Assembly: GCA_025357945.1 (NCBI GenBank)
Contig: JANYLJ010000055.1
Span: 775-64,774 of the forward strand
Source of the DNA: Gemmatimonadota bacterium
GTDB lineage: Bacteria; Gemmatimonadota; Gemmatimonadetes; Gemmatimonadales; GWC2-71-9
Direction of reading: 5' to 3'
DNA length: 64,000 nt
Shown here: in pieces, positions 14,424 to 52,832 of the stretch
Position numbering within the stretch: the first letter of the stretch is position 1
Layout of the letters: every line of letters starts with the position of its first letter
Program-made: the position numbers and the translations under genes
Notes under the pieces: generated by a model
What the model saw: only the letters and a program-made list of their open reading frames with translations
Database searches by the model: none
Told to the model about the DNA's origin: nothing

Positions 14424-14513
14424 TCGCTCCGTTGGCAGACTGGACCCGATGGTTCTGGCGTCGCGTTGACGCCACCGTTCCGGACCGCAACAAAGATACT
14501 CGCCGGAGGCCCC

Positions 14514-15185: not shown

Positions 15186-15189
15186 ACGG

Positions 15190-15918
15190 TCAGCCGCCAC
15201 CCATCGTCACGATTACGTCGTACCATGCGTGCGTCCACGCCGTGATCCCGAATCCGCGCACCACGTAGAGGGTGCTGAACACCAGCCCCGCCAGGAATCG
15301 GAACAGGAACGACGAGAGCTGCATCGGGTCGCCGTAGGCCCCGATGTAATGGAACGCCGAAAAAACCAGGGCGCTCGACAACACCGCGAACAGCCCGGCG
15401 CCCCGCGGCCCCCAGCCGAAAACCCGCTTCGCCAGCACGGACAACACGCCGACGAGAATCACGCGGAAGAGCAATTCCTCGTAAATCCCCGCACCAAGCG
15501 AGACCATCAGCTGGGTGGGCGTGCCGAGACGACTGGGCGTCGCGAGCAGGAAGACGTGCAGCACCGCCGCGGTGGCGTACCGCAACACGACGCCGATCGC
15601 GGCGGCCAGGACGACCGACTCCACGAGCATGAGCGGAAAGACGCGCCAGCGGAGCGGCCCAGGGTGTCGCCGCCAGTCGCGCACCACGAGCACCAGGCCG
15701 ACAAGGGTGAGCAGCACCTCGAACGCCACCACACCGTTGCGCCCGCCGAATTGGACGAAGAGCGACTTGAGGAGCACGTCGGCGCCGTTGCGGACGCCCG
15801 GCGCCGTGGCGCTCGACAGCAGCCAGGCCGACACTTCATAGGCGACCAGCAACGGCGCTGCGAACAGCACGGCGTAACGGGTGGAGCGGCTGTCGCAGTA
15901 GTACGGGCTCTTGACCAT
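15190..15918 (-). CDS. CPBP-family intramembrane glutamic endopeptidase (CAAX protease-like)
   Basis: Polytopic membrane protein with the EELLFR and FSAFH motifs. Confidence 0.8.
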   Translation of the reverse strand: MVKSPYYCDSRSTRYAVLFAAPLLVAYEVSAWLLSSATAPGVRNGADVLLKSLFVQFGGRNGVVAFEVLLTLVGLVLVVRDWRRHPGPLRWRVFPLMLVESVVLAAAIGVVLRYATAAVLHVFLLATPSRLGTPTQLMVSLGAGIYEELLFRVILVGVLSVLAKRVFGWGPRGAGLFAVLSSALVFSAFHYIGAYGDPMQLSSFLFRFLAGLVFSTLYVVRGFGITAWTHAWYDVIVTMGGG

Positions 15919-15947
15919 GCTGTAAGGTAGAGCCGTGGGCTGTCGGT

Positions 15948-16406
15948 TTACTCCACCTTGAGATGCCCCTTCATTCCCAGCGCAACGTGCGGATCACACT
16001 GGAAGTAGTACGTCCGCCCGGCTGGCAGGTTGACCGGCAGGTCGTACGTCTGCCCCGGCAGCTGCAGCATGTCGCTCGGCTCGGGCAGGTTCGTCGCGCC
16101 GACGTTGCTGTCCGGCAGGAAATGCACATTGTGCACGCCAACCCCCAGCGTGAACCGCAGAACGTCGCCCCGGTGCGCCTCGATCTCGGCCGGGACATAC
16201 CGGCTCCCCTGCTCATCCGCGATCATCTCGACCGTGATGATCTTGCCGGTTGGCGCCGGCGCGGCCGCGGTCGGAGCGCCTGCTGCGGGTGACTTGTCGG
16301 CAGTTGGTGTACCGGCGCCCTTGCCGCCGCATGCGGCGAACAAGGCAGTGGCTGGCAGCAAGATCCATGAAGGCGCGATGATGCGCAGGATGTCTGGTTT
16401 CCTCAA
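15948..16406 (-). CDS. cupredoxin (plastocyanin/pseudoazurin/amicyanin-like) lipoprotein, last gene of the nos operon
   Basis: Type-1 Cu ligand pattern HNVHF...C-D-P-H-V-A-L-G-M and lipobox LFAACGG. The proposed TTG start (16404..16406) overlaps the nosY TGA (16403..16405). The rest of the 561-aa ORF is an out-of-frame shadow of nosY/nosF. Confidence 0.7.
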   Translation of the reverse strand: MRKPDILRIIAPSWILLPATALFAACGGKGAGTPTADKSPAAGAPTAAAPAPTGKIITVEMIADEQGSRYVPAEIEAHRGDVLRFTLGVGVHNVHFLPDSNVGATNLPEPSDMLQLPGQTYDLPVNLPAGRTYYFQCDPHVALGMKGHLKVE

Positions 16407-17194
16407 AAGTCCTTCTTGTTGAACGTTTTCGCCGCAAAGCAGAGCGGCAGCGCCAGCCACAACGCCAGCGCGGTGATCAACGCGGCGTGACCCGCCGCGG
16501 TGCCCATGGTGTGCTGGACAACGGCACCAGTATACCCAAACAGTGCCGCGGCGTCGGTGCCGAGCAGTAGCAGCACTCGCGCAAGGTCGAGCGGATTGAG
16601 CGCCAGCGCCACGAGCAGCGGCACCTCGATCGCGCGCTCGCCGAACAGCAGCGCCAGCAACAGCACCACGCCGTCCCAGAGCACTGCGGCACCGAGCCAC
16701 AGGGCGAGGGCGATTCCGAGCGCACGCACGCGGTCGTCGACGCGGAGCGCGATCGCGAAGGCCAGCGCCGTGCCCACCAGCGTCAGGAGCGCGGTGACGC
16801 CGCCGAGCGCGAGCAGGCGCAGTCCCAGCGGTCCGATCAGGAGACCATGCCAGACGAAAGGTGCGAGCAGGCCGATCGTCAGCGCCGCCGCCAGCGGCAG
16901 GGCGGTGCCGAGGTAGAGCCCGGCGAACAGGTTGCCGCGGGTGACCGGCTGGGCGAGCAGCAGCTCGGTGACCTCGCGGGCATTGTGCACCTGCATCGTG
17001 CCGACGACGAGCGCCGCCAGCGGCGTGACAATCAGCGCGACGTCGAGCAGCGACACCAGCGTGGTGTCGCCGCCGCCGCCGAAACGGATCAGGAGGTCGC
17101 CCGCGAGCGCGAGTGCCGCGGCGAGGCCGATCAGCCATCGTCCGCGCACCGCCTCGCGGAGTGCCGGGCGGACAAGGCGCAGTGCCACGGTCAT
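16403..17194 (-). CDS. nosY: ABC-type permease NosY
   Basis: Six-TM permease directly following nosF with an ATGA overlap. Its position in the nos cluster supports the call. Confidence 0.75.
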   Translation of the reverse strand: MTVALRLVRPALREAVRGRWLIGLAAALALAGDLLIRFGGGGDTTLVSLLDVALIVTPLAALVVGTMQVHNAREVTELLLAQPVTRGNLFAGLYLGTALPLAAALTIGLLAPFVWHGLLIGPLGLRLLALGGVTALLTLVGTALAFAIALRVDDRVRALGIALALWLGAAVLWDGVVLLLALLFGERAIEVPLLVALALNPLDLARVLLLLGTDAAALFGYTGAVVQHTMGTAAGHAALITALALWLALPLCFAAKTFNKKDF

Positions 17195-17913
17195 GCGACC
17201 GCCAACAGTGCGCCACCGGCAAGCAGCTGCGCCACGGCGCGCTCGAGCGTCGGTTGACCGGTGTGCTTCTTGAGCTGTCCCACCGGACCATGCCACTTCG
17301 CCTCGCCATCGGCGAGGAAGACCACGTCGTCGGCGAGTTCCTCGAGTTCAGGCAGCACGTGCGAGGTGACCAGCACCGTGCACCCTCGGACCCGCTCGGT
17401 GAGCATCCGGTCCTTGAGGATCCGGCTCGCCAGCGGATCGAGGCCGGCGGTCGGCTCGTCGAGCAACAACGTGTTCGGTCGAAAGGCGAACGCCAGCACG
17501 GCGTTGATTTTCTGCCGAGTGCCGCCGCTGAGGGTGCCGAGCGACCGATCCAGGGCGTCGCCAAGGGCGAAGTCCTCGGCCAGGGAGAGGTCGGGTTCCA
17601 CCGTCGCGCCGCGCAGCGCCACCAGCGTCTCAAGCAGTTCGCGCCCGGTCAGGTGTGCCGGAAAGCGGGCGATCTGGGGCATGTAGCCGATCGCGGCGCG
17701 ATAGGCGGGAGCGGGACCGACGCGGTGCCCGTCGACGATGACCTCACCGGTATCGGGACGGGCGAGACCAAGCACCAGTTTGAGCAGCGTCGTCTTGCCC
17801 GCACCGTTGGGTCCCACCAGGCCGGTGATCCGACCGCGGCCAATGTGCAGATCGATCGCGCGCAGCACGCCGCGCTTCCCGAAGGACTTGCCGAGCGCCC
17901 GCGTGACGATCAT
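17191..17913 (-). CDS. nosF: ABC transporter ATP-binding protein NosF
   Basis: Walker A GPNGAGKTT, signature LSGGTRQK and Walker B LLLDEP. It overlaps nosD and nosY. Confidence 0.85.
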   Translation of the reverse strand: MIVTRALGKSFGKRGVLRAIDLHIGRGRITGLVGPNGAGKTTLLKLVLGLARPDTGEVIVDGHRVGPAPAYRAAIGYMPQIARFPAHLTGRELLETLVALRGATVEPDLSLAEDFALGDALDRSLGTLSGGTRQKINAVLAFAFRPNTLLLDEPTAGLDPLASRILKDRMLTERVRGCTVLVTSHVLPELEELADDVVFLADGEAKWHGPVGQLKKHTGQPTLERAVAQLLAGGALLAVA

Positions 17914-19133
17914 CGCGATCCCCGATCGGGCGCGCGCATCAAGGGGTGCGAATCGCTGACACCGGCCGGCGTCAGCACCGGCAGTGCGCGCTCCGCGGCA
18001 TCGAGCATCTTCACGAAAAGCGACCGTTGCAGCAGGAGCACCGGCTCGGCCCGCTCGACCAGCAGCGAAAAGAGCCGCACCGGGTGATAGGGCACGTCAC
18101 CGACGCCGTCGTGATCCAGGTCCCAACCGTGATACCCGTCCCACCAGTTGCCCGAGAACGTCGCGCTGGTCCCGTTGCCGTTGACCGCGACGTCGAACGA
18201 ATTGCGGCGGAACGTGTTGCCGGTGAACTGCGCGGACACCGTGCTGCCGAGCAGCCGCAACGCCCAGCCGTTGTCCTCGAACCGGTTACTCGTCACGAGG
18301 GCACGGTCGGCGCCATCGGCCAGCAGCCCGACGGTGTTGCCGCGGAACGTGTTCGCGAACAGGCGCGCGTCCTGGATCTCCTTGAGCAGGAGGCCGTACG
18401 CCGCCGCACCGCGGTTGGAAATGAAATTATTGCCGGTCATGTCGACCGCCCTGGTGTACATCACCGCCACGCCGCTGCCGTTGGCCCGGAACGTGTTACC
18501 GGTGTACGCCGACGAATCGGAGTACATGAAGTGCATGCCGTAGCGGACGTTGCCTTCGCTGACGTTGTCGCGGACGTCGGCGTGGCGGGTGAACTCGAGA
18601 TAGATCCCATCGCGATGGCCGCTGATCCGGTTGCCGCGGACGACAATGTTGCGGGAGGACCAGAGGTGGACACCGTTGCCGGTGGCGGCTTCGCGGCCTG
18701 GGCGACCAGCGATGACGTTGTCGGCCACCACGCAGTCCTCCGCTGCGGCGAGGTAGATCGCGAAGAACGTGGCGTCGAAGCGGTTGCCGACGATGTGGCA
18801 ATCCTTCGCATCGGCAACGCGAAGTGCCGCGCGATCCTCGGTGTATGCCGTGCCGGTGTTGGTGAACTCCAGCCCGCGCACCGTGACGTGGTCAGCATGC
18901 ACGATCAGCAGTGCGCGTCGCCCCTCGCCGTCGAGGATGGCGCCAGGTTGGCCCTGAAGCGTGAGCGGCCGGTCGACGGTCACGGTCGGTTCGCGATAGC
19001 GGCCGGCGCGCACCATGATGATCGCGCCCGGCGGCGCGGCGGTGACCGCGGCGCCGATCGAGGTGTACGGTCCGGTCGGCGACACGACGAGCGGCGGCCC
19101 CTGAAGGAGCAGGAGCAACATCATCGGGGGCAT
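17910..19133 (-). CDS. nosD: periplasmic parallel beta-helix protein NosD
   Basis: Repeated N-x-I/V-x-x-N beta-helix units (VADNVIAGRPG, VVRGNRISGHRDGIYL, TGNTFRANGSGVAVMY and others). The start is at MPPMMLLLLLQ (19133). Confidence 0.85.
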   Translation of the reverse strand: MPPMMLLLLLQGPPLVVSPTGPYTSIGAAVTAAPPGAIIMVRAGRYREPTVTVDRPLTLQGQPGAILDGEGRRALLIVHADHVTVRGLEFTNTGTAYTEDRAALRVADAKDCHIVGNRFDATFFAIYLAAAEDCVVADNVIAGRPGREAATGNGVHLWSSRNIVVRGNRISGHRDGIYLEFTRHADVRDNVSEGNVRYGMHFMYSDSSAYTGNTFRANGSGVAVMYTRAVDMTGNNFISNRGAAAYGLLLKEIQDARLFANTFRGNTVGLLADGADRALVTSNRFEDNGWALRLLGSTVSAQFTGNTFRRNSFDVAVNGNGTSATFSGNWWDGYHGWDLDHDGVGDVPYHPVRLFSLLVERAEPVLLLQRSLFVKMLDAAERALPVLTPAGVSDSHPLMRAPDRGSR

Positions 19134-19134
19134 A

Positions 19135-19770
19135 TCACGCCTTCGCGGCGGCGACCGCGCGAGGCATGGCATGCGTCGCGCGGACGGCACGGCGCCGCCG
19201 ATGGTTCGTGAGCAGTGCTCCCGTGGCGAGCAGAAACCCGGCGCCCAGGGCGATCGCACCCGTGCCTGGCAGCGATGTGGCGGTGAAGTTGAGTAGTTGC
19301 TTACTGCCGAGGAGCGGTGGTTCGTAGTTCATCCCCGGCACGACAATGATGGCATTCTCGGCATCGAGGTCATGGCCGTACTCATATTCCCAGCGGTGGA
19401 AGTCCCACAGGCCGATCCCGCCGATCAGGGCAAAACCCGCCAGCCACGCGACAACCGACCGGCGCGATCCGCGCCAGGCCGCGGCGATGCCGCCGACCAT
19501 CAACCCGACGACAATCCACGGCATCCAGCGCAACTCCGGGATCGCGTCGGGCAGAATCGGTTTCATGCCGATGTAATGGTTCAATCCGTTGATGCTCTGC
19601 AGGTCGTTGGGCTTGATCCCCACCACGGTGTTCACGTGGATCCGCAGCCCGAGGCCCTCCGGGTACTGCGGCGCAATCAGGCGCACCTCCCAGAGCGGCA
19701 GCAGCAGTGCCCCGCCAACCAGCAGCGATGCCGCCGCCATCAACACGCGCGCCCGGAGCGACATGGTCAC
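19135..19770 (-). CDS. integral membrane protein in the nosB position of clade II nos clusters
   Basis: 211 aa with about 4 TM segments. It lies immediately after nosZ (ATGA overlap) and before nosD. The assignment rests on position only. Confidence 0.5.
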   Translation of the reverse strand: MTMSLRARVLMAAASLLVGGALLLPLWEVRLIAPQYPEGLGLRIHVNTVVGIKPNDLQSINGLNHYIGMKPILPDAIPELRWMPWIVVGLMVGGIAAAWRGSRRSVVAWLAGFALIGGIGLWDFHRWEYEYGHDLDAENAIIVVPGMNYEPPLLGSKQLLNFTATSLPGTGAIALGAGFLLATGALLTNHRRRRAVRATHAMPRAVAAAKA

Positions 19771-21788
19771 CGCATTCCCGTCATCTGGTCATGCCTGGCG
19801 GGCACAACCAGGGCACCCTTGCGCGCTTCCTGCGTCTTGGCGCGCGCCGACATGTTGGCCTTGAGGGGCACGTTGGCACCGGCAGCACTGACCCGGATGT
19901 ACCCCTGCATCTCCTGGTGCAACGCGCTGCAGAAGTCGGTGCAGTAGAACGGGTAGACACCGGCAGCCTGCGGTACCCACTTGAGCGTGCGCGTTTCACC
20001 CGGCAGCAGGATCAGGTTCGCGGTATTCATGCCCAGCACCGCGAATCCGTGCACGATGTCCCAGTCCTGTTCGATGTTGGTGATATGGAAGTACACGGTG
20101 TCGCCCACCAGCACCCCTTCGAGGTTGTCCGGCGTGAAGTGACTGCGCATCGCGATCATCTTGATATGGACCGCCTTGCCCTTCCGCTCGATGCCGCCCT
20201 CGGCTTCCGACCGTGTGACGTACGGATTGCCGTTGTTCGCCAGCGTGAAGAACTTGACCTGCTTGTCCCGGATCATCGCCGCCGGCAGTGCTTGCGCGTA
20301 ATGCGGTTCACCGGTCGTGGGGAAGTCGAGCAGCAGCTTCATCTTGTCGCCGCTGATGTCGATGAGCTGCGCCGATTGCGCCAGCTCGGGCCCGGTCGGC
20401 AGGTAACGGTCCTTGGTGATCTTGTCCAACGCCAGGAGGTACTTGCCCCACGGCTGCTTCGAGTCGCCACCGGGGATCATCAGGTGGCCGATCGAGTAGT
20501 ACACCGGAATCCGGTCCACCACCTCCCAGGTGCCGAGCTTCCACTTCACCACTTCCGACGAAATGAACATCGACGTGTAGGCGTATCCCTTGCCGTCGAA
20601 CTCCGTGTGCAGGGGCCCAAGGCCCGGCTTCTGAACCTCACCCACCATCACGGCTTCGTACTTGAGAATTGGAATGCCCGAGAGCTCGCCGTCGAAGGCC
20701 TTGTCGGCGATCGCCTTCTGCAGCTTGGTGAAGGAGTGCACGGGAATCACGGTGGCGAGTTTGCCGCCGCCGACGATGTACTCACCCGTGGGATCCACAT
20801 CAACGCCATGCGGCGACTTGGGCGTCGGGATGAAGTACACCACACCCGGGCAGTTCGCCGGGTCGAGTATCAGGACGCTCGTCTTCCGCTCACTGGTCGC
20901 AATGCGCGTCCGCTCATCGGTAACATTGTGCAGGTACGCCGACGGCGTGGCCTTGGCCTTGCCGTCCTTGACACACTGCTCGGCGAGCTTCCAGTGCACC
21001 GCGGCGATGAAGTCCTTGTCGTTCTTTGACGCGTTCACCTCGAGCTTGGTGTACGCCTGCTCGGTGTCATAGCTGGTGAAGAAGAACCAGCCGTCGGACG
21101 GGCCCTTCCCGGCATGGCCGAGGTCGTAGTCGTATCCCGGCATCAGGATCTGGAAGGCAATGTCCATCTTGCCCGGCTGGTCGGCCCGGATGAAGGATAT
21201 GGTGCCCTTGAAGCGCGCCTTGAAGTCCTCGATTGGCGTGTCGGTGTTCGGGATCGGGACGGAGAAGCGGGTTGCCGACACGACATACTCCGAGTTGGGT
21301 GTCGTGAACGGCGAGGCATGACCGCCGGCGGAATTGGGGATCTGGATGATCTCGTCGGTCTCGAACCTCGTGAGGTCGATCCGGGCGATCCGGGGCGTGT
21401 TGTTGCCGTTGATGAAGAGCCAGCGTCCGTCGGGCACGCCATTGGTCTGCGACAGTTCCGTGTGATGCGTATCGTCCCATGGGATCTCACCGAACGTGGT
21501 CTGCAGCATCGCCCGGGTTTCCTGGGTGTAGCCGTAGCCGTTCTCGGGGAACTGGGAAAACACCGGAATGATCTTGAGCATGCGTCCGGACGGCAGGCCG
21601 TACACGGAGACGTTGCCGCTGTAGCCGCCCGACAGGAAGGCGTAGAACTCATCGTAGTGGCCGGGAGCAACGTACACCTTGCTCGCCGCGTCACCGCTGA
21701 CGAGTTGCTGGGGCGTCGACGTGCGGCACGCCGCTGCGAACGTGACCGCCAGGAGCGCTGCGATGAATCGGATGGTGCGATACGGCAT
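19767..21788 (-). CDS. nosZ: nitrous-oxide reductase NosZ, Sec-type (clade II-like)
   Basis: Beta-propeller body plus the C-terminal CuA motif CTDFCSALHQEM. The N-terminus MPYRTIRFIAALLAVTFAAAC has no twin-arginine motif. The start is at the ATG at 21788. Confidence 0.92.
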   Translation of the reverse strand: MPYRTIRFIAALLAVTFAAACRTSTPQQLVSGDAASKVYVAPGHYDEFYAFLSGGYSGNVSVYGLPSGRMLKIIPVFSQFPENGYGYTQETRAMLQTTFGEIPWDDTHHTELSQTNGVPDGRWLFINGNNTPRIARIDLTRFETDEIIQIPNSAGGHASPFTTPNSEYVVSATRFSVPIPNTDTPIEDFKARFKGTISFIRADQPGKMDIAFQILMPGYDYDLGHAGKGPSDGWFFFTSYDTEQAYTKLEVNASKNDKDFIAAVHWKLAEQCVKDGKAKATPSAYLHNVTDERTRIATSERKTSVLILDPANCPGVVYFIPTPKSPHGVDVDPTGEYIVGGGKLATVIPVHSFTKLQKAIADKAFDGELSGIPILKYEAVMVGEVQKPGLGPLHTEFDGKGYAYTSMFISSEVVKWKLGTWEVVDRIPVYYSIGHLMIPGGDSKQPWGKYLLALDKITKDRYLPTGPELAQSAQLIDISGDKMKLLLDFPTTGEPHYAQALPAAMIRDKQVKFFTLANNGNPYVTRSEAEGGIERKGKAVHIKMIAMRSHFTPDNLEGVLVGDTVYFHITNIEQDWDIVHGFAVLGMNTANLILLPGETRTLKWVPQAAGVYPFYCTDFCSALHQEMQGYIRVSAAGANVPLKANMSARAKTQEARKGALVVPARHDQMTGMR

Positions 21789-21914
21789 GCCTGCCTCGTG
21801 CGATTGGGCCCTCACGGGGCCAGTTGTGGCGCGGCAACCGGTTTCGCCGCGCACCGTGCCGCACCGCCATCGCGGGGGCACATCACCATTCTCGCTGGTG
21901 CCGCGGTCCGGCAC

Positions 21915-21930
21915 CGTGACGATTGTCACA
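21915..21930 (-). promoter_or_regulatory. candidate Crp/Fnr-family operator (TGTGAC-AATC-GTCACG) upstream of nosZ
   Basis: Perfect 6-4-6 inverted repeat with its centre about 134 nt upstream of the nosZ ATG. The same 16-mer (22-mer with flank) occurs at 40788..40809. Confidence 0.55.
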
Positions 21931-22029: not shown

Positions 22030-22494
22030 TCAGCGCGCCGCGGGCCGGTCGGCCACCCGAAGTGGTCGTGTCGAGATCGTCAGGCGAGACGGCGCGACGG
22101 CAGCGTGATCGAGGGTGCGCCAGAGATTCCATGCCAGCGCGTACGCACCGGCGGCACTGAGCGTTCCACCGGCGCCGAGCAGCCAGGCAGCCACGGTCGC
22201 GGTGTGGAATCGGACGATGAACCCCCCGGCCAGCAAGGCGAGGCCGACGTTCGCGGCGACAAAGTGCCACGACGCGAGGCGCGGACTGTGCAGCGGCGTC
22301 GCCGTGAAGCGCGGCATCACGTGGTACGCCACACCGGCGATCATCATCACGACGAATCCCAGCAGCAGCATGTGCAGGTGCGCGGTGCGGTAGATCGTCC
22401 AGGCCGGGTGGACCGCCATCGCGACGCCGAGGGACACGCCGGCCGCGAGCCATGCGAGCGCAGCACGCAGGAAGCGCACGACGTAGCGCTCCAT
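22030..22494 (-). CDS. small 4-TM membrane protein, paralogue A (AHxH motif, haem-copper oxidase subunit I-like segment)
   Basis: 154 aa from MERYVV. TAHLHMLLLGFVVMMIAGVAYHVMPRF aligns with SAHTHLILVGAMLEAIVGTALWLFPRP of the ORF at 24199..24639. The start overlaps the cupin stop (TAATG). Confidence 0.65.
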   Translation of the reverse strand: MERYVVRFLRAALAWLAAGVSLGVAMAVHPAWTIYRTAHLHMLLLGFVVMMIAGVAYHVMPRFTATPLHSPRLASWHFVAANVGLALLAGGFIVRFHTATVAAWLLGAGGTLSAAGAYALAWNLWRTLDHAAVAPSRLTISTRPLRVADRPAAR

Positions 22495-22817
22495 TAGCAA
22501 TGCTCGCAGCAACTGGCGATGAGTTCGACCCGGAGCTCGAGACCGCGGTCCCCGGCGACGACGGAGTGCTCGACGTCGGGGTCGATCTGCACGACCGCGC
22601 CACGAGGGAGGACTCGCATCCCGTCTCCGGCGATCGCGATGTCACCGCTACCGGCCACCGCGGTGATCACGACCCGCGCCGGGTTGCGGTGCGGCGGCAG
22701 CCGTTGACCAGGCTCGAATCGGACCGTGAAATGGCGGCCATGCGCTCCGTGCTCAATCTCGGAAACAACTGGCCGGTGCGTGATCGGTAGCTCGGGGGGA
22801 GAAGATGGTGACGCCAT
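22494..22817 (-). CDS. cupin-domain protein with Cys-rich C-terminus (CCEHC)
   Basis: 107 aa from MASPSS. The cupin motifs are GQRLPPHRNPARVVITAVAGSG and PRGAVVQIDPDVEHSV. Confidence 0.65.
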   Translation of the reverse strand: MASPSSPPELPITHRPVVSEIEHGAHGRHFTVRFEPGQRLPPHRNPARVVITAVAGSGDIAIAGDGMRVLPRGAVVQIDPDVEHSVVAGDRGLELRVELIASCCEHC

Positions 22818-22870
22818 GGGCACTCCTCGAATCGGGTCACTGGATGATGCGGCCACGTATCGTCCCCTGC

Positions 22871-22886
22871 TGTGACGCTTGTCACG
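22871..22886 (+). promoter_or_regulatory. candidate Crp/Fnr-family operator (TGTGAC-GCTT-GTCACG) in the divergent cupin/crp promoter region
   Basis: The 6-mer arms are identical to the nosZ and NMO sites. It lies 54 nt from the cupin ATG and about 36 nt before the regulator ATG. Confidence 0.55.
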
Positions 22887-22914
22887 CCGGGCCCTTCGGG
22901 GGTTGATTGGCAGG

Positions 22915-23610
22915 ATGGGCGCCTTTACCGCAGTGCTCCGCGCCGTGCCGATCTTCGACGGGCTCGGCGACGCCGTGCTGGAGCGGCTCGCCGCCCGTTG
23001 CGTTCCGCGCGCCGTGGGAGAGGGATTCATGCTCTTCCGCGCTGGCGAACGGTGCGCCGGGCTGTACGTCGTGCTCGAAGGGCGCGTCCGGATCTACCGG
23101 ACGTCGCCGGATGGCCGGGAACAGACGATCGCCGTGGAAGGTCCCGGCCGGCCGGTGGCCGAGTTGCCACTCGTCGATGATGGTCCCTATCCAGCGAGCG
23201 CGGTCACCACGGTGCCAAGCCGGCTGATCTTTCTGCCGCGCGCGGAGTTCGAGCATGCGTTTCGCACCGATCCCGACGTGGCCGCGGCCGTCGTGCGGGC
23301 GCTCGGCGCGCGGTTGCGGCACATGGTGCAGCTGGTGGAGACACTCGCTTTCCGCGATGTCGCCGCGCGGCTCGCGATGCTGCTGGCCGACCACGCCGAG
23401 CGGCACGGCCGGGTGGGAGGCGACGGCGTCGTGCTGGATCTCGACCGCACGCAGGAGGAGTTGGCGGCCGAGATCGGTACGGCCCGGGAATCGGTGTCGC
23501 GGGCGCTAAAGCAGTTGAAGGCGCACGGCTTGATCAGGAAGCGAACCGGGATGCACTTGCTGCTGGCACCGGCGGAACAACTGCGCGCGTGGGCGCGCGG
23601 CGGTGGATGA
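22915..23610 (+). CDS. Crp/Fnr-family transcriptional regulator (no FNR-type Cys cluster)
   Basis: cNMP-binding-like N-terminal domain (VPIFDGLGDAVLERLA...LFRAGE) and a C-terminal HTH (ELAAEIGTARESVSRALKQL). The start is taken at the ATG at 22915; the ORF is open from the TTG at 22879. Confidence 0.85.
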   Translation: MGAFTAVLRAVPIFDGLGDAVLERLAARCVPRAVGEGFMLFRAGERCAGLYVVLEGRVRIYRTSPDGREQTIAVEGPGRPVAELPLVDDGPYPASAVTTVPSRLIFLPRAEFEHAFRTDPDVAAAVVRALGARLRHMVQLVETLAFRDVAARLAMLLADHAERHGRVGGDGVVLDLDRTQEELAAEIGTARESVSRALKQLKAHGLIRKRTGMHLLLAPAEQLRAWARGGG

Positions 23611-24197
23611 GACATGCGTCACGGCGCGTCGGGTCGCCGACCGGCGATGTTGGCCAAGTGACCACACCTGGCGATAGCGGCACGGACTCGCTGCCCGACT
23701 TCGATCCCGCAGTCCTCACCGACCTCGACGTGCGCGACGACTTGCGCTCAGGGCGCGAGCCGTTGGCGCGCATTCTTGCCGTAGCCGAGGCCCTCCCGGC
23801 GGCGGGCGTGTTGCACCTGCGCACACCGTTCCAGCCGGCGCCACTTTTCTACGTATTGTCGCAGCGGGGGTTCGCATACCACAGCGAGGCATTTGCCGCC
23901 GATGACTGGTCGTCGTGGTTCTGGCGCAGTGAGTCACCGCCGGCGCCGGCCCCGCCGGTGAGTGCGCTGGCGGCCGCGTTGGCGCCGGCGGGCGTGATCG
24001 ACCTGAGGCACTTGCCGCCGCCGGAACCGCTGGTGGCGATTCTGGCGCGGATCACCCGCGATGACGCGCCGTTCGAGGTGATGCTCCCGTTCGATCCACC
24101 GATCCTCGACGTGATGCTGGCGCAGCAGGGATGGCGGGTTGAGCGGATCGGCACGAGCGCTGACAGTGCGCGCCTGAGGATCGTGCGCGAGCAGTGA
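23607..24197 (+). CDS. protein with two tandem DUF2249-like domains
   Basis: LDVRDDLRSGREPLARILAVAEALPAAGVLHLRTPFQPAPLFYVL and IDLRHLPPPEPLVAILARITRDDAPFEVMLPFDPPIL match the pattern I recall for DUF2249. ATGA overlap with the regulator gene. Confidence 0.6.
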   Translation: MRHASRRVGSPTGDVGQVTTPGDSGTDSLPDFDPAVLTDLDVRDDLRSGREPLARILAVAEALPAAGVLHLRTPFQPAPLFYVLSQRGFAYHSEAFAADDWSSWFWRSESPPAPAPPVSALAAALAPAGVIDLRHLPPPEPLVAILARITRDDAPFEVMLPFDPPILDVMLAQQGWRVERIGTSADSARLRIVREQ

Positions 24198-24198
24198 C

Positions 24199-24639
24199 AT
24201 GCCCCCACTGAGTCGCCGCTTCCTCGCGACCGCCGCCGGCTGCCTCCTGGCCGGGATCGGCCTGGGCTTCGTGATGTTGCTGCAACGCGAGTTCGGTGGC
24301 CACGGGTCTGGCCCGCTCGTCGTATCCGCCCACACGCACCTGATCCTCGTGGGTGCCATGCTCGAGGCGATCGTCGGCACGGCACTCTGGCTCTTCCCGC
24401 GCCCGGTGCGCGGACAGTGGCAGGCACCGCCGTGGCTCGGTGAACTCGCATGGGCAACGCTCACGGTCGGCACCGTTATGCGCGCGATCGCTGAAATCCT
24501 GCACGGTTCGCACGACGGTGGTATCGTACGTATCGCGATCGCGGCCGGTGCTGGGTTGCAGGTTGTCGGCGTCGTCACAGCGGTGATCGTGCTGCAGCCG
24601 AGGGTGCGGGCGTCGGTGACGCGCCCGGGGCCTGCGTGA
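24199..24639 (+). CDS. small 4-TM membrane protein, paralogue B (AHxH motif)
   Basis: 146 aa, starting 1 nt after the DUF2249 stop. It is homologous along its length to 22030..22494. Confidence 0.65.
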   Translation: MPPLSRRFLATAAGCLLAGIGLGFVMLLQREFGGHGSGPLVVSAHTHLILVGAMLEAIVGTALWLFPRPVRGQWQAPPWLGELAWATLTVGTVMRAIAEILHGSHDGGIVRIAIAAGAGLQVVGVVTAVIVLQPRVRASVTRPGPA

Positions 24640-24735: not shown

Positions 24736-25740
24736 GTGTTTCGTCGAATTCCGCTGCTGCTACTGCTCGCGGCCTGCCAGACTCGATCGTCCGTTCCGAC
24801 GCAGTCACAGGCCATTCCACCGACGACGTCGCCGGCATCGATGTCTCATGGTGAGGCCAAGGTCGATAACCCCGCGGTGCCGCTGGGCCGCGCGGCCGAC
24901 GCCCCGCCGCGTAGCACGATACGGGCGCACCAGATCCGCTTGCGCTCGGTGCATGTCGCGCACCTCGTGGCGCCGGGCGTCGTGTTCGAGGCGTGGACGT
25001 TCGACAGCACCGTACCCGGACCCGTGGTGCGCGTCACGGTTGGCGACACGGTGCACTTCACGCTCATCAATGGCGCACCGATCCCGCACTCCATGGACTT
25101 CCATGCGGCCGAACTCGCGCCGAGTCGGGCCTATGTCAATGTCATGCCGAAGGATTCGATCCATTTCAGCTTCGTGGCGCGGGTGCCGGGGGTATTCATG
25201 TATCACTGCGGGACCGCACCAGCCGCATTGCACATTGCCAGTGGGATGTACGGCGCCCTGATCGTCGATCCGGTGATCCCGCGCCCGCCCGCCCGCGAGT
25301 TCGTGCTGGTGCAGAGCGAGTTCTACTTCGCGCCGACGCACGACTCTGCCGGGCCACGGTCGCTCGGCTGGCAGAAGATGCTCGACCTCGCGCCGGACTA
25401 CGTCGTCTTCAACGGCGTGTACGCCCAGTACGCCGCGCACCCGATACCGGTGGAACCTGGCGAGTTGATCCGGTTCTACGTGGTCGACGCCGGGCCGAAC
25501 CGCGTGTCCTCGTTCCATGTGGTCGGCGCGATCTTTCAGCGGGTGTTTGTCGACGGCAACGGACCGCCGCAACTTGGCGTGCAAACGGTCAGCGTGCCGG
25601 TGGGTGGCGGGATGATCTTCGAGACCCGGCTGGCCGAGCCGGGTCTCTACCCGTTCGTCTCGCATTCGTTCGCGGATGCGACCAAGGGAGCGGTGGGCGT
25701 GCTGCGCGCCGGAAATCCGGCGGGAAGCGCTAGCCATTGA
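24736..25740 (+). CDS. nirK: copper-containing nitrite reductase-like two-domain cupredoxin protein (NirK-like), lipoprotein
   Basis: HSMDFHAAE (T1 His, catalytic Asp, T2 His), MYHCGTAPAALHIASGMYG (T2 His-T1 Cys...His...Met) and a second-domain His in SSFHVVG. Lipobox LLLLAACQ. GTG start preceded by AAGGAG. Confidence 0.7.
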   Translation: MFRRIPLLLLLAACQTRSSVPTQSQAIPPTTSPASMSHGEAKVDNPAVPLGRAADAPPRSTIRAHQIRLRSVHVAHLVAPGVVFEAWTFDSTVPGPVVRVTVGDTVHFTLINGAPIPHSMDFHAAELAPSRAYVNVMPKDSIHFSFVARVPGVFMYHCGTAPAALHIASGMYGALIVDPVIPRPPAREFVLVQSEFYFAPTHDSAGPRSLGWQKMLDLAPDYVVFNGVYAQYAAHPIPVEPGELIRFYVVDAGPNRVSSFHVVGAIFQRVFVDGNGPPQLGVQTVSVPVGGGMIFETRLAEPGLYPFVSHSFADATKGAVGVLRAGNPAGSASH

Positions 25741-25871: not shown

Positions 25872-26531
25872 TCAGACGCGAACCGCGAGTTCGTCCTCGA
25901 CGGTCGCTACCCCGGGTGTGGCCCATGCAGCGCGTTCCGCGTCGGCGCGCTCGGTCCACGAACGCACGGTGCCGCGGAGCACCACGACGCCTCCCGGCTT
26001 CGACTCGACGTTGACACGTTCGGCGTCCACCGTGGCGCTACGCTTGAGCGCCCCGGTGATCTGCGCCTTGACCACCTCCGGCGCGACCGTCTGCTGCCGG
26101 ACCGCGATGCGGTTGTTGACGCCCTTCACGCCAGTGAGATAGCGAGCGGTGTTTTCCGCATCGGACCGCTGATACTGCCAGTCGACTTCGCCATGCAGGG
26201 TGACCCACCCGTCCTGCACCTTGCTCGTGATCTTGTCGTCGGGGAGGTCGATGTGCCACTTGAACGCTGAGACCAGGCTGTGGGCGATGTCGCCGTCGCT
26301 GCGAACTGAGGTGCTCGGTAGCTTGACCTTCAGTTCGTCGGCGACCGAATGGACGCCGCTCACTCGTTCGGCGATCCGGGCAGCCTCGAACCCCTGGACA
26401 TAGCTGCTCACCGGCCCGGTGAGCGTGATGACGCCGTCCTTGGCGGCCACGCCGATTTCGGCGTCGCGCGTCCGGGGTTGCCACTTGAGCTCCTCGATCA
26501 CGTCCTTCTGAAGCTGCATGTCCGTCTTCAT
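25872..26531 (-). CDS. BON-domain protein (three BON repeats, OsmY-like)
   Basis: Repeated D-x-x-L/I-x-x-x-V/I...V-x-V-x-V-x-x-G-x-V-x-L-x-G units (GVITLTGPV, GWVTLHGEV, GVVVLRGTV). Confidence 0.8.
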   Translation of the reverse strand: MKTDMQLQKDVIEELKWQPRTRDAEIGVAAKDGVITLTGPVSSYVQGFEAARIAERVSGVHSVADELKVKLPSTSVRSDGDIAHSLVSAFKWHIDLPDDKITSKVQDGWVTLHGEVDWQYQRSDAENTARYLTGVKGVNNRIAVRQQTVAPEVVKAQITGALKRSATVDAERVNVESKPGGVVVLRGTVRSWTERADAERAAWATPGVATVEDELAVRV

Positions 26532-26842
26532 GAGAATCTCCTGCAGCACGCTGCTGCGAATTGAGTCGCGCCACCCCTCCGGAGCGAGAGCCCGGGATGG
26601 CTGGCCTGAATATGCGAGTCGGTGTGGCGCGCGTCAGTCGGCGGAATGGTGTACCCGGTGTCAGGGGCCGCCGGACGCGGGCCTCCCGATCGGCTCGCCG
26701 CGTCGCGGACGTGGGTGTGCGGGGCGATACCGCCGACATCTCGTCCAGCATTCCCCCGACTGACGCGGCAGACCGCCCCCAGTAGACTGCCGTTGATCCT
26801 GACGCGGGATGTACGGCGATCACCACTGCGGAGGACAGGGCG

Positions 26843-27811
26843 ATGTTCGAACGGATCATGGTGCCGCTCAATGGGCTCGCATCAGCCGAGGCCGCTGTCG
26901 CGCCAGCTGCAACGATGGCACGTACGCATGGCGCCGAGTTGCACTTGGTGCTGGTCGACGGGCCTTCCCGCCTGGATCCGATGTCCGACGAGTTCTTGCG
27001 GATCGATTGCGAGGCATATCGCGACCAGCAGATGCAGCCAACTGCCGCCAACCTGCGCCGTGACCTCGGGATCGCGGTCACCACAGCGATGCTGACTGGG
27101 TCGGTGGTCGACGCGCTCGCGAATTACGCATCGTCGGTGCGCGCCGATCTGATTGTAATGGCAACCCACGGCCGCGTCGGGTGGCGGCGCGCGTGGGTGG
27201 GCAGCGTCGCCGACGAACTGATGCACGAGGTCACCGTCCCGCTGTTGCTGTTGCGCATCGGCAACGAAGGTGCGCCGGTCCCGGGGCCGTTCCGTCGGAT
27301 CCTGATTCCCCTCGACGGTTCCGCTGCGGCAGAGGGTGCCCTCGACGCGGCGCGCACCGTCGCCCGGTTGGGCCGGTCGACGCTGATCCTGGCGCACGTA
27401 GTGACACCGATCCCGGCGGCGGTCGAGATGTCAGCCACAGGCGGCACGATGTTGGTAGACGCTGAGGCCACCCAAAGGCTGGTGGCCGAGGCCCACCGGT
27501 ACCTCGACGGCCTCGCCGACTCGCTGCGGTCACGCGAGCCGATGCCGGTCGAGACACAGGTGGAACTGGCACCGGTCATCACGCCGGTGTCGCCGGTGGC
27601 GGGGACCATCGCCAGTCTTGCCCGCCATCTGCGTGCCGACCTGGTCGCGCTGACGACGCATGACCGTGGCGCGTCTCGCCTCTTCGTCGGCAGCGTGGCC
27701 GACAAGGTCCTGCACGACACCCATTGCGCACTGCTCATCTGCCACGGTCAGGCCGCACCCACCAGCCCGGTAGCGATGCAGGCGCGCCCGGCACAGACCG
27801 CACGTTGCTGA
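26843..27811 (+). CDS. universal stress protein, tandem Usp domains
   Basis: Two repeats: MFERIMVPLNG...DLIVMATHGRVG and RRILIPLDGS...DLVALTTHDRGA. Confidence 0.85.
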   Translation: MFERIMVPLNGLASAEAAVAPAATMARTHGAELHLVLVDGPSRLDPMSDEFLRIDCEAYRDQQMQPTAANLRRDLGIAVTTAMLTGSVVDALANYASSVRADLIVMATHGRVGWRRAWVGSVADELMHEVTVPLLLLRIGNEGAPVPGPFRRILIPLDGSAAAEGALDAARTVARLGRSTLILAHVVTPIPAAVEMSATGGTMLVDAEATQRLVAEAHRYLDGLADSLRSREPMPVETQVELAPVITPVSPVAGTIASLARHLRADLVALTTHDRGASRLFVGSVADKVLHDTHCALLICHGQAAPTSPVAMQARPAQTARC

Positions 27812-27824
27812 CCGGAGGGGATCA

Positions 27825-29627
27825 TCATCGTGTTGAGTAAATCGCAGCGACCGGCAGCACGAAGGAAAACGTGCTGCCTTGACCGACCTCGCTTGCGACC
27901 CAGATCCGGCCGTGATGTGCCTGGACAATCCCCTTGGCGATGGCGAGGCCCAGACCGGTGCCGCGGGCGACACCGGCACGGCTGACCTGCCAGAATCGAT
28001 CGAAGATGTGCGGCAGATGCTCCGACCCTATGCCGGTGCCGGTGTCCCGGACTGAAATGACAACGCCTTCGGCGTGCGGTGACGCGGTGATGGTCACGGC
28101 GCCACCGGCAGCCGTAAAGCGCAACGCATTACTGATCAGGTTGCCGAGGGCTTGCAGTACCCGGCCATGATCCGCCAACACTTCGGGAAGTTCACCGGCT
28201 ATTTCGACATTGAGTGACACCGCCGCTTCACGCGCGCGTGCGGCGAACGTTTCGATCGCTGCTGTCAGCATCGGCGCGACCCCGTGCGGCTCGAGATGTA
28301 TCGCCAGCCGGCCGGCGTCGATGCTTGCGGCGTCGAGCAGGTCCTGCATCAGCCGGTGCATCCAATTGGCCGATTCGAGAACGGTCGCGTAGAGCGCCCG
28401 TCGCTCGTCGGCGTCGGCCGGCGGATGCTCGAGGAGCGTGCGCGCGCACATCGTGATCGCGCTGGCCGGGGTGCGCAGGTCGTGCGACACAACGGCGAGG
28501 ACTTCGTCGCGTGCCGCTAGCGCACGCTGGGCGCTCCGGTAGAGGAGGGTATTGTCGATCGCGAGGGCGGCAGGTGCCGCGAGTGCGTGCGCCAGTGCCA
28601 GATCGGATTCCGAAAGGGTTGGGTCGTGTCTGCCGATCGTCAGCGCGCCGATCACCTGTTCGCGGACTGCCAGCGGGACACAGAGGCATGAGCCGACGCC
28701 GAGTTGTTCGAGGTCGTGCAGCTCGGCGGCGTCCACCGCACGGGCTTCGAGCCAGTCGATGGAAACCTGGCGGTGAAGGCGAGGTTGACCGGTGCGCAGT
28801 ACATCGATGGCCTCGGATGGCGAGTCCCAATCGATGCCTCGCGCCGCCATCGACTGCAGCGCGGTGTGACGGCGAAGGTCGGCATGGGAACTGACGACGC
28901 GGCGGAGAGTTCCCGACGCACCGTTACGGTTCTCGACAATGTCGAGAAGAGACCAGTCACCGATGGCGTTGACCGGGAGTTCCGCGACCAGTTCCAGCAT
29001 CGCCTCGTATTCGAGCGTGCCGGCGAGGCGTGCCCCGGCCACCGCCAAGGTGTGCTCGTGGTGCTCGAAGCGGCGCTGTTCGGTCACATCTCGCACCACC
29101 GCTGTCAACAGCGGGCCACCGGGCGTCGCCAGCCTGGAAATTGACGCGTCGGCGGAAAACTCGGTGCCGTCGCGCCGGCGACCCGACACCTCCCGGCGCT
29201 CTCCCATGCGGCGCGCAGCGTCGCCCGCCCCGGCAAAGTCAACGATATGCTGGCGATGAGCCACCACCCGGGGTGTCGGAATGAGAATGTCGAGGGACTT
29301 GCCGATGACTTCCGCCGCGGGGTAGCCGAACATCAGCTCAGCGGCGTAGTTGAAATGCACGATGGCGCCGGTTGCGTCGGCGCTGACGATGGCGTCGGCG
29401 GCGATCGCGAGGATGCCGGCAAAGCGGGCCTCAGACTCGCGCAGTTGCGCCTCAACGCGCACTCGCTTCGCGAGGTCACGCACCAACGCTCGTCGCATGA
29501 ACCAGAGAACGATGACGGCGAGCAGCAGAAGGGCGCCGATTGCCGCGGCAAGGGCGTCGAAGCTCGGCTGCTGCGCGAACGCCGGAGCCTGCCCGGCAGT
29601 GATCCCTCGGATGGTCCGGAACGGCAT
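27825..29627 (-). CDS. PAS-GAF sensor histidine kinase (HisKA type)
   Basis: TM segment, PAS (IVSADATGAIVHFNYAAELMFGY), GAF, the H-box VVSHDLRTPASAI and HATPase N/G boxes. The start is at MPFRTIRG (29627). Confidence 0.85.
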   Translation of the reverse strand: MPFRTIRGITAGQAPAFAQQPSFDALAAAIGALLLLAVIVLWFMRRALVRDLAKRVRVEAQLRESEARFAGILAIAADAIVSADATGAIVHFNYAAELMFGYPAAEVIGKSLDILIPTPRVVAHRQHIVDFAGAGDAARRMGERREVSGRRRDGTEFSADASISRLATPGGPLLTAVVRDVTEQRRFEHHEHTLAVAGARLAGTLEYEAMLELVAELPVNAIGDWSLLDIVENRNGASGTLRRVVSSHADLRRHTALQSMAARGIDWDSPSEAIDVLRTGQPRLHRQVSIDWLEARAVDAAELHDLEQLGVGSCLCVPLAVREQVIGALTIGRHDPTLSESDLALAHALAAPAALAIDNTLLYRSAQRALAARDEVLAVVSHDLRTPASAITMCARTLLEHPPADADERRALYATVLESANWMHRLMQDLLDAASIDAGRLAIHLEPHGVAPMLTAAIETFAARAREAAVSLNVEIAGELPEVLADHGRVLQALGNLISNALRFTAAGGAVTITASPHAEGVVISVRDTGTGIGSEHLPHIFDRFWQVSRAGVARGTGLGLAIAKGIVQAHHGRIWVASEVGQGSTFSFVLPVAAIYSTR

Positions 29628-29681
29628 GCAGATCTCAGGGTCGGGGGCACCAACGCCGGCACGCCGTACGCCGGGGCGACG

Positions 29682-29698
29682 GTCTGATGGTATCAGAC
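29682..29698. promoter_or_regulatory. 17-bp perfect palindrome GTCTGAT-GGT-ATCAGAC in a divergent kinase/kinase promoter region
   Basis: Seen directly in the sequence, between the starts at 29627 (minus strand) and 29835 (plus strand). Confidence 0.35.
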
Positions 29699-29834
29699 TT
29701 TCAGGCCGCCGTCCATGGTCCGCCGGCCAGCGAACATCGCCCCCGGCACGGCATGACCCCTGTCGGCGATTCCCCGACAAGGATGCCACCATCTTGCCGA
29801 CAGACAGTACCGGTGTCGCGGTCTAGCTTGACGC

Positions 29835-30851
29835 ATGTCTCAGACCGCAACCACCTTGGTACCGCGCCACTGGCGCGCCTGGCAGCACCCGCTGTTCTGG
29901 AAAATGCTGGGCGCCGACCTGTTGCTGATCGGCTTCACGGCGATTGCATTTCCCGCGCGGACCGGCGAACGGTTGGTCCTGATGATCGCGGCAATCGTTC
30001 TGGTCAGCCTGGTGCTAAACGTCGCGCTGACCCCGTCTGCACTGCGACCGTTGCACGTCGCACGAGGTACTGCCCAGCGCCTGGCAGCAGGGCTGGCCAA
30101 CGCCAGCCTGGAACGGCCCGTGGCCGCCGGCGCGGTTCAGCCGATCGATGACCTGCTGAACGACGTCGCGACACGGCTTGAAGCAGATCGCGCCCGCGCG
30201 CTCACGTTGATCCGGCGGAGTCTCCATGCGCACGAGGCGGAGCGGGAAGCCATCGCCAGGGAACTCCGGGATGCCGGTGCGCAGCAATTGGCGGCGCTCA
30301 CGTTGCAACTCACCGCCGCCGTCCAGGAGAACCAGGATCCGAAGGTCGCGCTGCCATTGGCCGCCGCCAAGGACCTGGCCGTACAGGCAGCGAATGAGAT
30401 TTCAGCCCTGGCCGAGCGGATCGCTCCCGGGTTGCGTGGCGAATTCGGTCTCGCAGCAGGGCTGGACGGGTTGCGGCGCCGCGTCACGCGCCACAGCGCG
30501 CTTGACTTCACGCTCGACGTCCGGGGCGCGCCTTTCCCGCTGCCGTTGCCGCTGACTCGGGCTCTCCTGCGGGTAGCCGAGGAGGCTGTCGAAAATGTCG
30601 AGTGTCACGCTGGCGCACGGTCCGTCACCGTCGACCTGTCGTTTACCCGCCCGATTGTTCGGCTCGAAATCTCGGATGACGCCAACGGTTTCGACCTGGC
30701 CGTTCTGGATCAAGCTCACGGCGGACTCGGCCTGTTCCGGGCCAGGGAGCTTCTCGCACATGAAGGCGGGAAGATGCAGATTGAGTCCGCGCCGGGGTGC
30801 GGGACGCGGGTGCTTGCGACGGTCGATGCGTCTCATGGAGCCACATCATGA
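29835..30851 (+). CDS. HisKA_3-type sensor kinase homologue with degenerate H-box (His replaced by Arg)
   Basis: Two TM segments. The dimerisation box reads EREAIARELRDAGAQQL where the family has ...ARELHD.... The N, D and G boxes are intact (EEAVENVECHAGA, DDANGF, GGLGL). Confidence 0.75.
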   Translation: MSQTATTLVPRHWRAWQHPLFWKMLGADLLLIGFTAIAFPARTGERLVLMIAAIVLVSLVLNVALTPSALRPLHVARGTAQRLAAGLANASLERPVAAGAVQPIDDLLNDVATRLEADRARALTLIRRSLHAHEAEREAIARELRDAGAQQLAALTLQLTAAVQENQDPKVALPLAAAKDLAVQAANEISALAERIAPGLRGEFGLAAGLDGLRRRVTRHSALDFTLDVRGAPFPLPLPLTRALLRVAEEAVENVECHAGARSVTVDLSFTRPIVRLEISDDANGFDLAVLDQAHGGLGLFRARELLAHEGGKMQIESAPGCGTRVLATVDASHGATS

Positions 30852-40787: not shown

Positions 40788-40803
40788 TGTGACAATCGTC
40801 ACG
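40788..40803 (+). promoter_or_regulatory. candidate Crp/Fnr-family operator (TGTGAC-AATC-GTCACG) upstream of the NMO-like gene
   Basis: It sits in the 49-nt gap after the decarboxylase stop, with its centre about 31 nt before the ATG at 40827. The 22 nt at 40788..40809 are identical to 21930..21909 read on the minus strand. Confidence 0.55.
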
Positions 40804-44116: not shown

Positions 44117-44307
44117 GTCGCGCCAAGCCCTTGACGTCCCGACCCCGATCATGAAAATCAGATGAAGAGACCTTTATCCGACGGCAATTACCGCTTTGGA
44201 TTTGTATATGTACGGAGCGTAATATTGCGTAGTTCCGCGTCGGGCTCCCACCCCGCACGCTGTCATTGGATCGTCGTGCCAGACCTGACGAGAAGGGGGC
44301 ATCCAGT

Positions 44308-52744: not shown

Positions 52745-52748
52745 GCAT

Positions 52749-52776: not shown

Positions 52777-52832
52777 TACCCGCCGAACCGTGAAGAGTTG
52801 GTGAGGTGACGATGAAGGTTTGTTCAGGCGGG

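Follow-up and report, generated by a model that had tools for sequence, protein, structure and literature searches.

Two paralogous four-helix membrane proteins encoded between nosZ and nirK in a Gemmatimonadota bacterium: probable HCOH family members with a possible NnrS-like accessory role

Gene organisation between nosZ and nirK

A stretch of 64,000 nucleotides from a Gemmatimonadota bacterium (GenBank assembly GCA_025357945.1, contig JANYLJ010000055.1, positions 775 to 64,774 of the forward strand), referred to here as the window and numbered from its first letter, carries two small genes for paralogous membrane proteins, A and B, between the genes encoding a nitrous oxide (N2O) reductase, NosZ, and a copper nitrite reductase (Cu-NiR), NirK. 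Both proteins very probably belong to the HCOH family, whose members correspond to a four-helix unit of haem-copper oxidase (HCO) subunit I, and we consider that they may serve as a haem-binding accessory that responds to nitric oxide (NO). The nearest relatives are metagenome-assembled genomes of Gemmatimonadales. The genes of the locus, with transmembrane helices abbreviated as TM and open reading frames as ORF, are the following:

19767-21791, minus strand: NosZ, clade II, Sec-dependent (TIGR04246, 933 bits; start MPYRTIRF)
22030-22494, minus strand: protein A, 154 aa, four TM (ORF 22030-22512, real start ATG at 22494)
22494-22820, minus strand: cupin, 108 aa, ending CCEHC (Pfam Cupin_2, 27.7 bits; cut-off 27.2)
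22879-23610, plus strand: Crp/Fnr regulator with cNMP_binding and HTH_Crp_2 domains (probable start near 22915)
23589-24197, plus strand: DUF2249 protein with two DUF2249 stretches (PF10006, 61.6 bits; true start probably near 23658)
24199-24639, plus strand: protein B, 146 aa, single-unit HCOH protein, B-type
24736-25740, plus strand: NirK, Geobacillus/AniA-type Cu-NiR (TIGR02376, 175.6 bits, below cut-off)

A reading of the letters and their translations alone, without database searches (the sequence-only reading), had described two divergent, translationally coupled operons at this place, the cupin followed by A on the minus strand and the Crp/Fnr regulator, the DUF2249 protein and B on the plus strand. 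The ORFs and the sequence bear out this description, with every gene at its expected position. The cupin stop and the A start share the letters TAATG, a one-base overlap, and a single base separates stop from start at the DUF2249/B junction (TGAcATG).

The NirK-like protein matches solved Cu-NiRs, with E 5e-63 against the structure 3x1e and the motifs PHSMDFHA, MYHCGT, HIAxGM and SSFHVVG aligned; on the strength of this score and of the aligned copper-ligand motifs we take it for a genuine Geobacillus/AniA-type enzyme. The best NCBIfam match of the Crp/Fnr protein is FtrB, under its cut-off, and since no N-terminal Cys cluster was seen in its sequence it is not an Fnr-type Fe-S sensor. The later start of the DUF2249 protein is favoured because its orthologues in two related loci (L001 and L084) are 180-182 aa long. 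In sequence searches of the PDB the DUF2249 protein had no match, and the cupin matched uncharacterised cupins only.

Homology of A and B to oxidase subunit I

A and B, proposed as paralogues in the sequence-only reading, match the same profiles and align in BLASTP (E 2e-6; 34% identical in a stretch of 62 residues) along the very segments quoted in that reading. The pair H45/H47 of A (numbering of the 160-aa ORF) is the invariant H-x-H of this protein and stands at the start of TM2; in B the H-x-H follows a longer TM1-TM2 loop, and an R...E pair is conserved in TM3. Conservation of the His pair, on which the earlier proposal depended, was confirmed in an alignment of 20 sequences spanning both subfamilies, where the motif is invariant; it recurs in 128 of the 130 members from related loci and in nearly all of 149 inspected cluster representatives consisting of single units. 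The residues common to A-type and B-type sequences are restricted to the H-x-H, a few Gly, I and P-R. The B-type proteins (that of the window and 47 others) conserve in TM3 an Arg and a Glu at a spacing of four residues, and in TM4 a Gln; the A-type proteins lack these three and conserve His64, His83, N88 and a WRT motif instead.

The resemblance to helix X of oxidase subunit I, first noticed by eye, reflects real homology, as the A/B profile matches helices IX-XII of CcoN. A profile built from 20 sequences of the A and B types, searched against the PDB, retrieved the CcoN chains 9g6b_A (8e-12) and 3mk7_A (7e-10), its best stretch covering CcoN residues 306-404 and 420-463, with weaker matches to helices I-IV and VI-VII. 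Counted along the printed alignment, the H-x-H falls on CcoN H345 and H347, which coordinate haem b3 and haem b in cbb3 oxidase. In the weaker helix I-IV match the first His falls on H60 of helix II, the other haem b ligand. Likewise, residues 37-96 of A align with positions 336-396 of the NCBIfam ccoN profile.

An AlphaFold2 (AF2) model of A consists of four long helices (predicted local distance difference test, pLDDT, 80.6). The protein reaches 16.8 bits against DUF2871 (PF11070, cut-off 27.4 bits), a profile that B does not match. Of the six His that characterise PF00115 on its twelve core helices (II, VI, two in VII, two in X), these four-helix proteins carry only the helix X-type pair.

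The HCOH family and its link to NnrS

The sequence-only reading could not assign A and B to a characterised family, but the single-unit HCOH family, related to NnrS, fits both, and we hold their membership with high confidence. Pei, Li, Kinch and Grishin (2014, Protein Sci 23:1220) reportedly gave a computational description of HCOH proteins made of a single "evolutionary unit", with NnrS as a three-unit member. They are said to have already proposed the similarity to oxidase helices IX-XII and to NnrS, together with the denitrification context, and to have predicted that single units assemble into homo- or hetero-oligomers (trimers) that rebuild the 12-helix fold. PMC11218638 quotes that reference and a link between DUF2249 and HCO.

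A search with A returned 851 homologues. Annotation pipelines give such short proteins the name "cbb3-type cytochrome c oxidase subunit I"; this name is an over-annotation. An exhaustive hidden Markov model search collected 2,689 cluster representatives at E<=1e-3, among them proteins of one unit (~150 aa), two units (~290 aa) and three units (400-680 aa). In the alignment of one triple-unit group none of the six His varies. The AF2 model of this triple fusion (pLDDT 89; predicted TM-score, pTM, 0.89) gave 44 best matches in the PDB that were all oxidase or NO reductase (NOR) catalytic subunits, CcoN among them with a TM-score of 0.80 and probability 1.0; in this model, the triple fusion takes the 12-helix oxidase/NOR fold. 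DUF1858/ScdA_N domains are found at the N- and C-terminal ends of many relatives, and one protein consists of a single unit with two DUF1858 domains. A truncated cbb3 pseudogene was discarded as an explanation, since thousands of family members share this length and are conserved.

Four relatives (P0160, P0161, P0196 and P0243) pass the Pfam NnrS cut-off and score 1e-23 to 1e-30 against the A/B profile, and NCBI gives the cluster of P0196 the name NnrS. The membrane protein NnrS, which contains haem and copper, has an auxiliary part in NO resistance and belongs to the core of the NsrR, NnrR, DNR and NorR regulons that respond to NO (PMC3345576, PMC1274295).

The family relationship raises the question of whether A and B, with or without the cupin, might themselves form a split, minimal NO reductase whose centre of haem and a non-haem metal would bridge the gap between NirK and NosZ. 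The ~40 larger ORFs scanned in the window include no nor gene; NorBC is reported from 9% of Gemmatimonadota genomes, compared with 23% for NosZ (PMC9426454). A homotrimer would hold six His, the number found in oxidases and NORs, and the B-type TM3 conserves a Glu and an Arg. However, the His pair of helix VII that holds CuB or FeB has no counterpart here, a complete cNor stands beside the module in Thermus, NnrS, the nearest relative that has been studied, is merely auxiliary in NO resistance, and a nor gene could lie elsewhere in the genome, the rest of which was not seen. We therefore regard a split reductase as very improbable. The same low standing applies to the notion that A, B and the cupin are a living "unfused" oxidase/NOR catalytic subunit that itself reduces or scavenges NO; if this were true, they would carry out the step that the many Gemmatimonadota without NorBC lack between NirK and NosZ.

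Conservation of the neighbourhood in Gemmatimonadota

With the A-type alignment we retrieved 80 species-representative related loci, 52 of which have at least 3 kb on both sides. The A-type (82 sequences) and B-type (48 sequences) proteins form separate clades, with 50-55% identity within and 26% between them. A B-type gene directly follows A in 40 loci, at a distance of 0-15 nt in 37 of these, and the usual layout reads crp and DUF2249 on one strand and cupin, A, B and nosZ on the other (crp <- DUF2249 <- / -> cupin -> A -> B -> nosZ). The idea of a mirror-image module with one copy per reductase did not survive this comparison: A and B are usually adjacent, and the order of the window, with B behind DUF2249 and before nirK, recurs only in its close relative L084. 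The adjacency of A and B across loci suggests that they are partners or alternatives within one module, not one protein per reductase, and the mirror order is a lineage-specific rearrangement of the crp-DUF2249/cupin-A-B-nosZ arrangement. The closest relative of the genome, whose A is 86% identical, has the layout of the window without B.

An association with denitrification genes beyond this locus, which the sequence-only reading had left to be tested, was found: nosZ or a NirK-like gene lies within 5 kb in 43 of the 52 loci with sufficient flanks. A second HCOH gene is present in 33 of these 52, and a Crp/Fnr gene adjoins the module in 27 of the 80 loci.

In 22 of the 40 tandem pairs (L006-L065) A and B lie in the same frame, apart only by the stop codon of A and 0-48 nt, as in L006 (233-955 and 956-1387). 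One third would be expected to share a frame (binomial p = 0.004, the kinship of the loci being ignored). Two-unit fusions of ~290 aa occur naturally (P0146, P0153), and stop-codon readthrough yielding an A-B fusion is conceivable.

The cupin partner and the Thermus homologue

A cupin gene stands 5' of A in 47 of the retrieved sequences, which comprise 83 loci and the window. The CCEHC tail that had been noted on the window cupin is indeed present, but its His is not conserved, and the conserved motif is a C-terminal CC-x-x-C. This tail ends 25 of the 47 cupins, mostly in nosZ-linked loci; of the 22 without it, most end in ...TPRPG.

A tblastn search of 72,556 plasmids with A gave matches in Thermus only. 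On Thermus thermophilus plasmids the match is a 125-aa "hypothetical protein", and its start codon overlaps with the stop codon of a cupin gene:

L087 8899-9276 = NC_017273.1 258278-258655 (plasmid of strain SG0.5JP17-16): Thermus HCOH gene, 125 aa, A-type

This protein aligns with the A-type proteins at an hhalign probability of 98% and 39% identity, and it carries an HAH motif. The gene order is that of an Rrf2 regulator, a DUF542 (ScdA_N) protein, the cupin and the HCOH protein, opposite norCBH and nirS; a gene for a YwiC-like membrane protein follows the HCOH gene. The three upstream genes are the published nsrR-nsrS-nsrT, a cluster in which NsrT was taken as the last gene and the membrane protein is not mentioned (PMC5748679). 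As the published cluster ends at NsrT, the membrane protein gene was overlooked.

BLASTP of the window cupin against Thermus NsrT was not significant (E 1.8), but a tail like that of NsrT (...TPRP) recurs in many Gemmatimonadaceae cupins. The link between the window cupin and NsrT is thus drawn from position, domain family and the NsrT-like tails of these other Gemmatimonadaceae cupins. The operon of ScdA_N, cupin and A-type HCOH genes is also found in other Deinococcota, for example in a Trueperaceae locus, where it occurs with Crp, DUF2249, Rrf2 and YwiC genes.

A palindromic box shared by the cupin-A operon and nosZ

Two palindromic boxes of the form GTGAC-N4-GTCAC lie upstream of the minus-strand genes:

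22872-22885: perfect palindrome GTGACGCTTGTCAC, in the divergent intergenic region between crp and cupin-A, CRP-like (TGTGA-N6-TCAC)
21916-21929: second box GTGACAATCGTCAC, ~130 bp 5' of the nosZ start codon

The first box is kept at the same relative place in ~30 related loci, and the nosZ-side box is kept between the HCOH genes and nosZ in ~20. The pattern GTGA[CT]-N4-[AG]TCAC occurs at 69 sites in 1.08 Mb of retrieved loci, compared with ~2.5 expected by our own estimate from base composition, and almost all of these sites lie at the two positions, 5' of cupin-A and 5' of nosZ. The half-sites are closer to the CRP consensus TGTGA-N6-TCACA than to the FNR box. The FNR box itself (TTG-N8-CAA) was rejected as a candidate, with 10 matches against 6.4 expected and none in the intergenic region. 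The shared box suggests that cupin-A(-B) and nosZ belong to one regulon, which is presumably governed by the adjacent Crp/Fnr protein.

A third perfect copy of the GTGACAATCGTCAC box (40789-40802) lies at the start of a gene of the nitronate monooxygenase (NMO) family, which is followed by a heavy-metal P-type ATPase gene (42278-44116); a matching box (L084 14475-14488) stands 41 bp 5' of the orthologous NMO gene. The NMO-ATPase operon may therefore share a regulon with nosZ and cupin-A. Directly after the ATPase gene, positions 44266-45903 encode a 545-aa multihaem c-type cytochrome with c554, c7 and paired-CXXCH motifs.

The proximity of a regulator suggests that the module could act as a membrane sensor, in which a haem held by A and B would sense NO or O2 and relay the signal via the cupin, the DUF2249 protein or both to the Crp/Fnr protein, which would in turn activate nosZ and the module. 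In ~20 loci the regulator, DUF2249 and the module adjoin one another, with shared boxes; the cupin resembles the ligand-binding domains of AraC-type proteins, and the Thermus DUF2249 protein DrpA, which modulates the denitrification regulators DnrS and DnrT, offers a precedent (PMC6282519). However, NsrS and NsrT left the DNA binding of NsrR unchanged in Thermus (PMC5748679), and many loci have the module but no adjacent regulator. We judge a sensor of this kind decidedly unlikely.

Copper offers another possible common theme, since both flanking reductases are copper enzymes, NnrS is reported to contain copper plus haem, and the third perfect box precedes an operon with a heavy-metal P-type ATPase. 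The His pair and the Cys-rich cupin tail would then move or buffer copper for the maturation of NosZ and NirK. Nevertheless, the H-x-H aligns with haem ligands and not with CuB ligands, the CCxxC tail is missing in half of the cupins, and the Thermus module adjoins the nor operon and a gene annotated 'nitrite reductase' (nirS in the Thermus literature). NirS and the nor enzymes are not copper enzymes. We accordingly give copper handling very little credence.

The nos cluster and the supply of electrons to NosZ

On the minus strand, nosZ is followed by its accessory genes:

19135-19770, minus strand: NosB-like membrane protein (ORF)
17910-19259, minus strand: NosD (ORF; Pfam NosD in the L001 orthologue)
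17191-17913, minus strand: NosF (ORF; Pfam ABC_tran in the L001 orthologue)
16403-17296, minus strand: NosY (ORF)
about 15948-16390, minus strand: cupredoxin (ORF; Pfam Copper-bind in the L001 orthologue)

The cluster (13845-19770) ends with the cupredoxin, an Rce1-like membrane protease and a DsbA/thioredoxin-like protein, and the order in L001 is identical. Domains of the NosR, NosGH and NosC types were absent from the nos cluster, both here and in L001.

This composition leaves room for an electron-entry module replacing NosR/NosGH, in which electrons would pass from quinol, or from a donor in the cytoplasm by way of the Cys-tailed cupin, to the haem of A and B and on to NosZ and NirK, directly or via the cupredoxin at the end of the cluster. 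A(-B) lies directly 5' of nosZ in 27 of the 80 loci, the inferred position of the haem is near the periplasmic face, and the CCxxC cupin tail is found mainly in nosZ-linked loci. On the other hand, cupin-HCOH pairs exist without a periplasmic copper reductase, in Thermus beside NirS and cNor and in the Deinococcota-type loci L089 and L090. In addition, 9 of the 52 well-flanked Gemmatimonadota loci are orphans, the closest relative manages without B, nosZ has a box and promoter region of its own, apart from cupin-A, and haems at a single membrane depth cannot move electrons across the membrane. An electron-entry role is therefore unlikely, and the context favours NO handling over both this role and that of a sensor.

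Proposed role of the HCOH pair

The best overall explanation, to which we assign a probability of about 55%, is that A and B are anciently diverged HCOH paralogues that form an NnrS-like, NO-responsive, haem-binding accessory. That they assemble into a haem-binding oligomer is rather likely, and that the role consists specifically in handling NO is put forward more tentatively. According to this proposal, A alone or A together with B would oligomerise, as a trimer by analogy; A alone would suffice in Thermus and in the relative without B, and A with B would be the likely composition where the genes are coupled. Haem b would lie between subunits, ligated by the first His from one protomer together with the second His from the next, in the way that H60 and H347 hold haem b in CcoN. 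Judged by the positive-inside rule and by comparison with the topology of oxidases, the haem would be close to the periplasmic face, and the cupin would dock on the cytoplasmic side of the complex. Rather than acting as a terminal oxidase, the complex would handle or sense NO or nitrosative damage while NirK and NosZ are running.

Several observations weigh against this accessory role. Neither protein passes the cut-off of Pfam COX1 (PF00115, 34.8 bits), A scoring 32.1 and B 24.8, and neither matches Pfam NnrS (PF05940) at E<0.1. Of the two kinds of search suggested by the sequence-only reading, the profile search established the homology to CcoN, but the structural search gave no significant fold match: Foldseek with the AF2 monomer of A returned generic four-helix bundles from the PDB, none below E 0.6, although a lone unit would not be expected to look like a chain of 12 helices. 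The nine orphan loci lie among housekeeping genes without denitrification genes nearby, as do the operons of L089 and L090. In many loci the HCOH genes stand immediately 5' of nosZ, in some without nirK in the examined flanks (L085), and this linkage fits a role specific to N2O reductase as well as it fits a role in NO handling. Tight 1:1 coupling of A and B is at odds with a simple A2B or AB2 trimer. No experimental study of a single-unit HCOH member was found in the literature searched.

Novelty and significance

Gemmatimonadota are common carriers of clade II NosZ in soil, and the accessory proteins of their N2O reductase are poorly known. The identity of A and B will not surprise a specialist; the locus is a clean entry to an unresolved family beside an environmentally important enzyme. 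What is new is the split into A-type and B-type proteins with their tight gene pairing, the co-translated cupin found from Gemmatimonadota to Thermus, the overlooked Thermus gene after nsrT, and the Crp-type box common to cupin-A and nosZ. Among the neighbours of nosZ and nirK in Gemmatimonadota, the HCOH pair with its cupin is the most constant, and it shares a regulator box with nosZ. As the Thermus homologue belongs to a genetically tractable host, where it comes straight after three genes whose deletion and expression have already been achieved, the function of such one-third oxidases can be tested directly. If a haem-binding trimer is indeed formed, it would illustrate how the 12-helix oxidase fold arose by fusion of a four-helix unit.

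Other genes of the window

A block located 3' of nirK (25872-31510) is missing from the relatives L001 and L084. It encodes a triple-BON protein, a tandem universal stress protein, a PAS-GAF histidine kinase, a HisKA_3 kinase and a LuxR-type response regulator, which together resemble a unit for hypoxia or redox stress. A multicopper oxidase (51701-52744) was considered as a further NirK and rejected as CopA/CueO-like; this two-domain enzyme of the CopA/CueO type adjoins a CopR/CusR-type response regulator, and together (51701-53516) they are probably a copper-resistance unit.

Comparison with known systems

Compared with the catalytic subunits CcoN, NorB and COX1, A and B represent only one third, without the CuB or FeB ligands from helices VI and VII and without the partner subunits CcoO/P or NorC. 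NnrS contains a homologous unit, and regulators of the NO type accompany the HCOH genes (Crp/Fnr here, NsrR in Thermus), as NnrR, DNR, NsrR and NorR control nnrS. However, NnrS is one 12-helix chain, whereas A and B are separate four-helix chains, and the full H-x-H is present in both A and B but only in the first unit of the NnrS-type relatives inspected.

The Thermus nsrRST locus has the same overlap of the cupin stop with the start of an A-type HCOH gene as the window. It differs in its ScdA_N protein (NsrS) and Rrf2 regulator, which stand in place of DUF2249 and Crp/Fnr, and in the tail of NsrT, which ends in ...TPRP, whereas the window cupin is of the CCxxC-tail type.

The closest correspondence is with the single-unit HCOH proteins as reportedly described in 2014, and no feature contradicts it. 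A (154 aa) and B (146 aa) have their own starts and stops and four TM each, their strongest similarity is to helices 9-12 of HCO/NOR subunit I, their His lie at haem-ligand positions, and they have in common with that family a neighbourhood of DUF2249 and of denitrification or NO genes.

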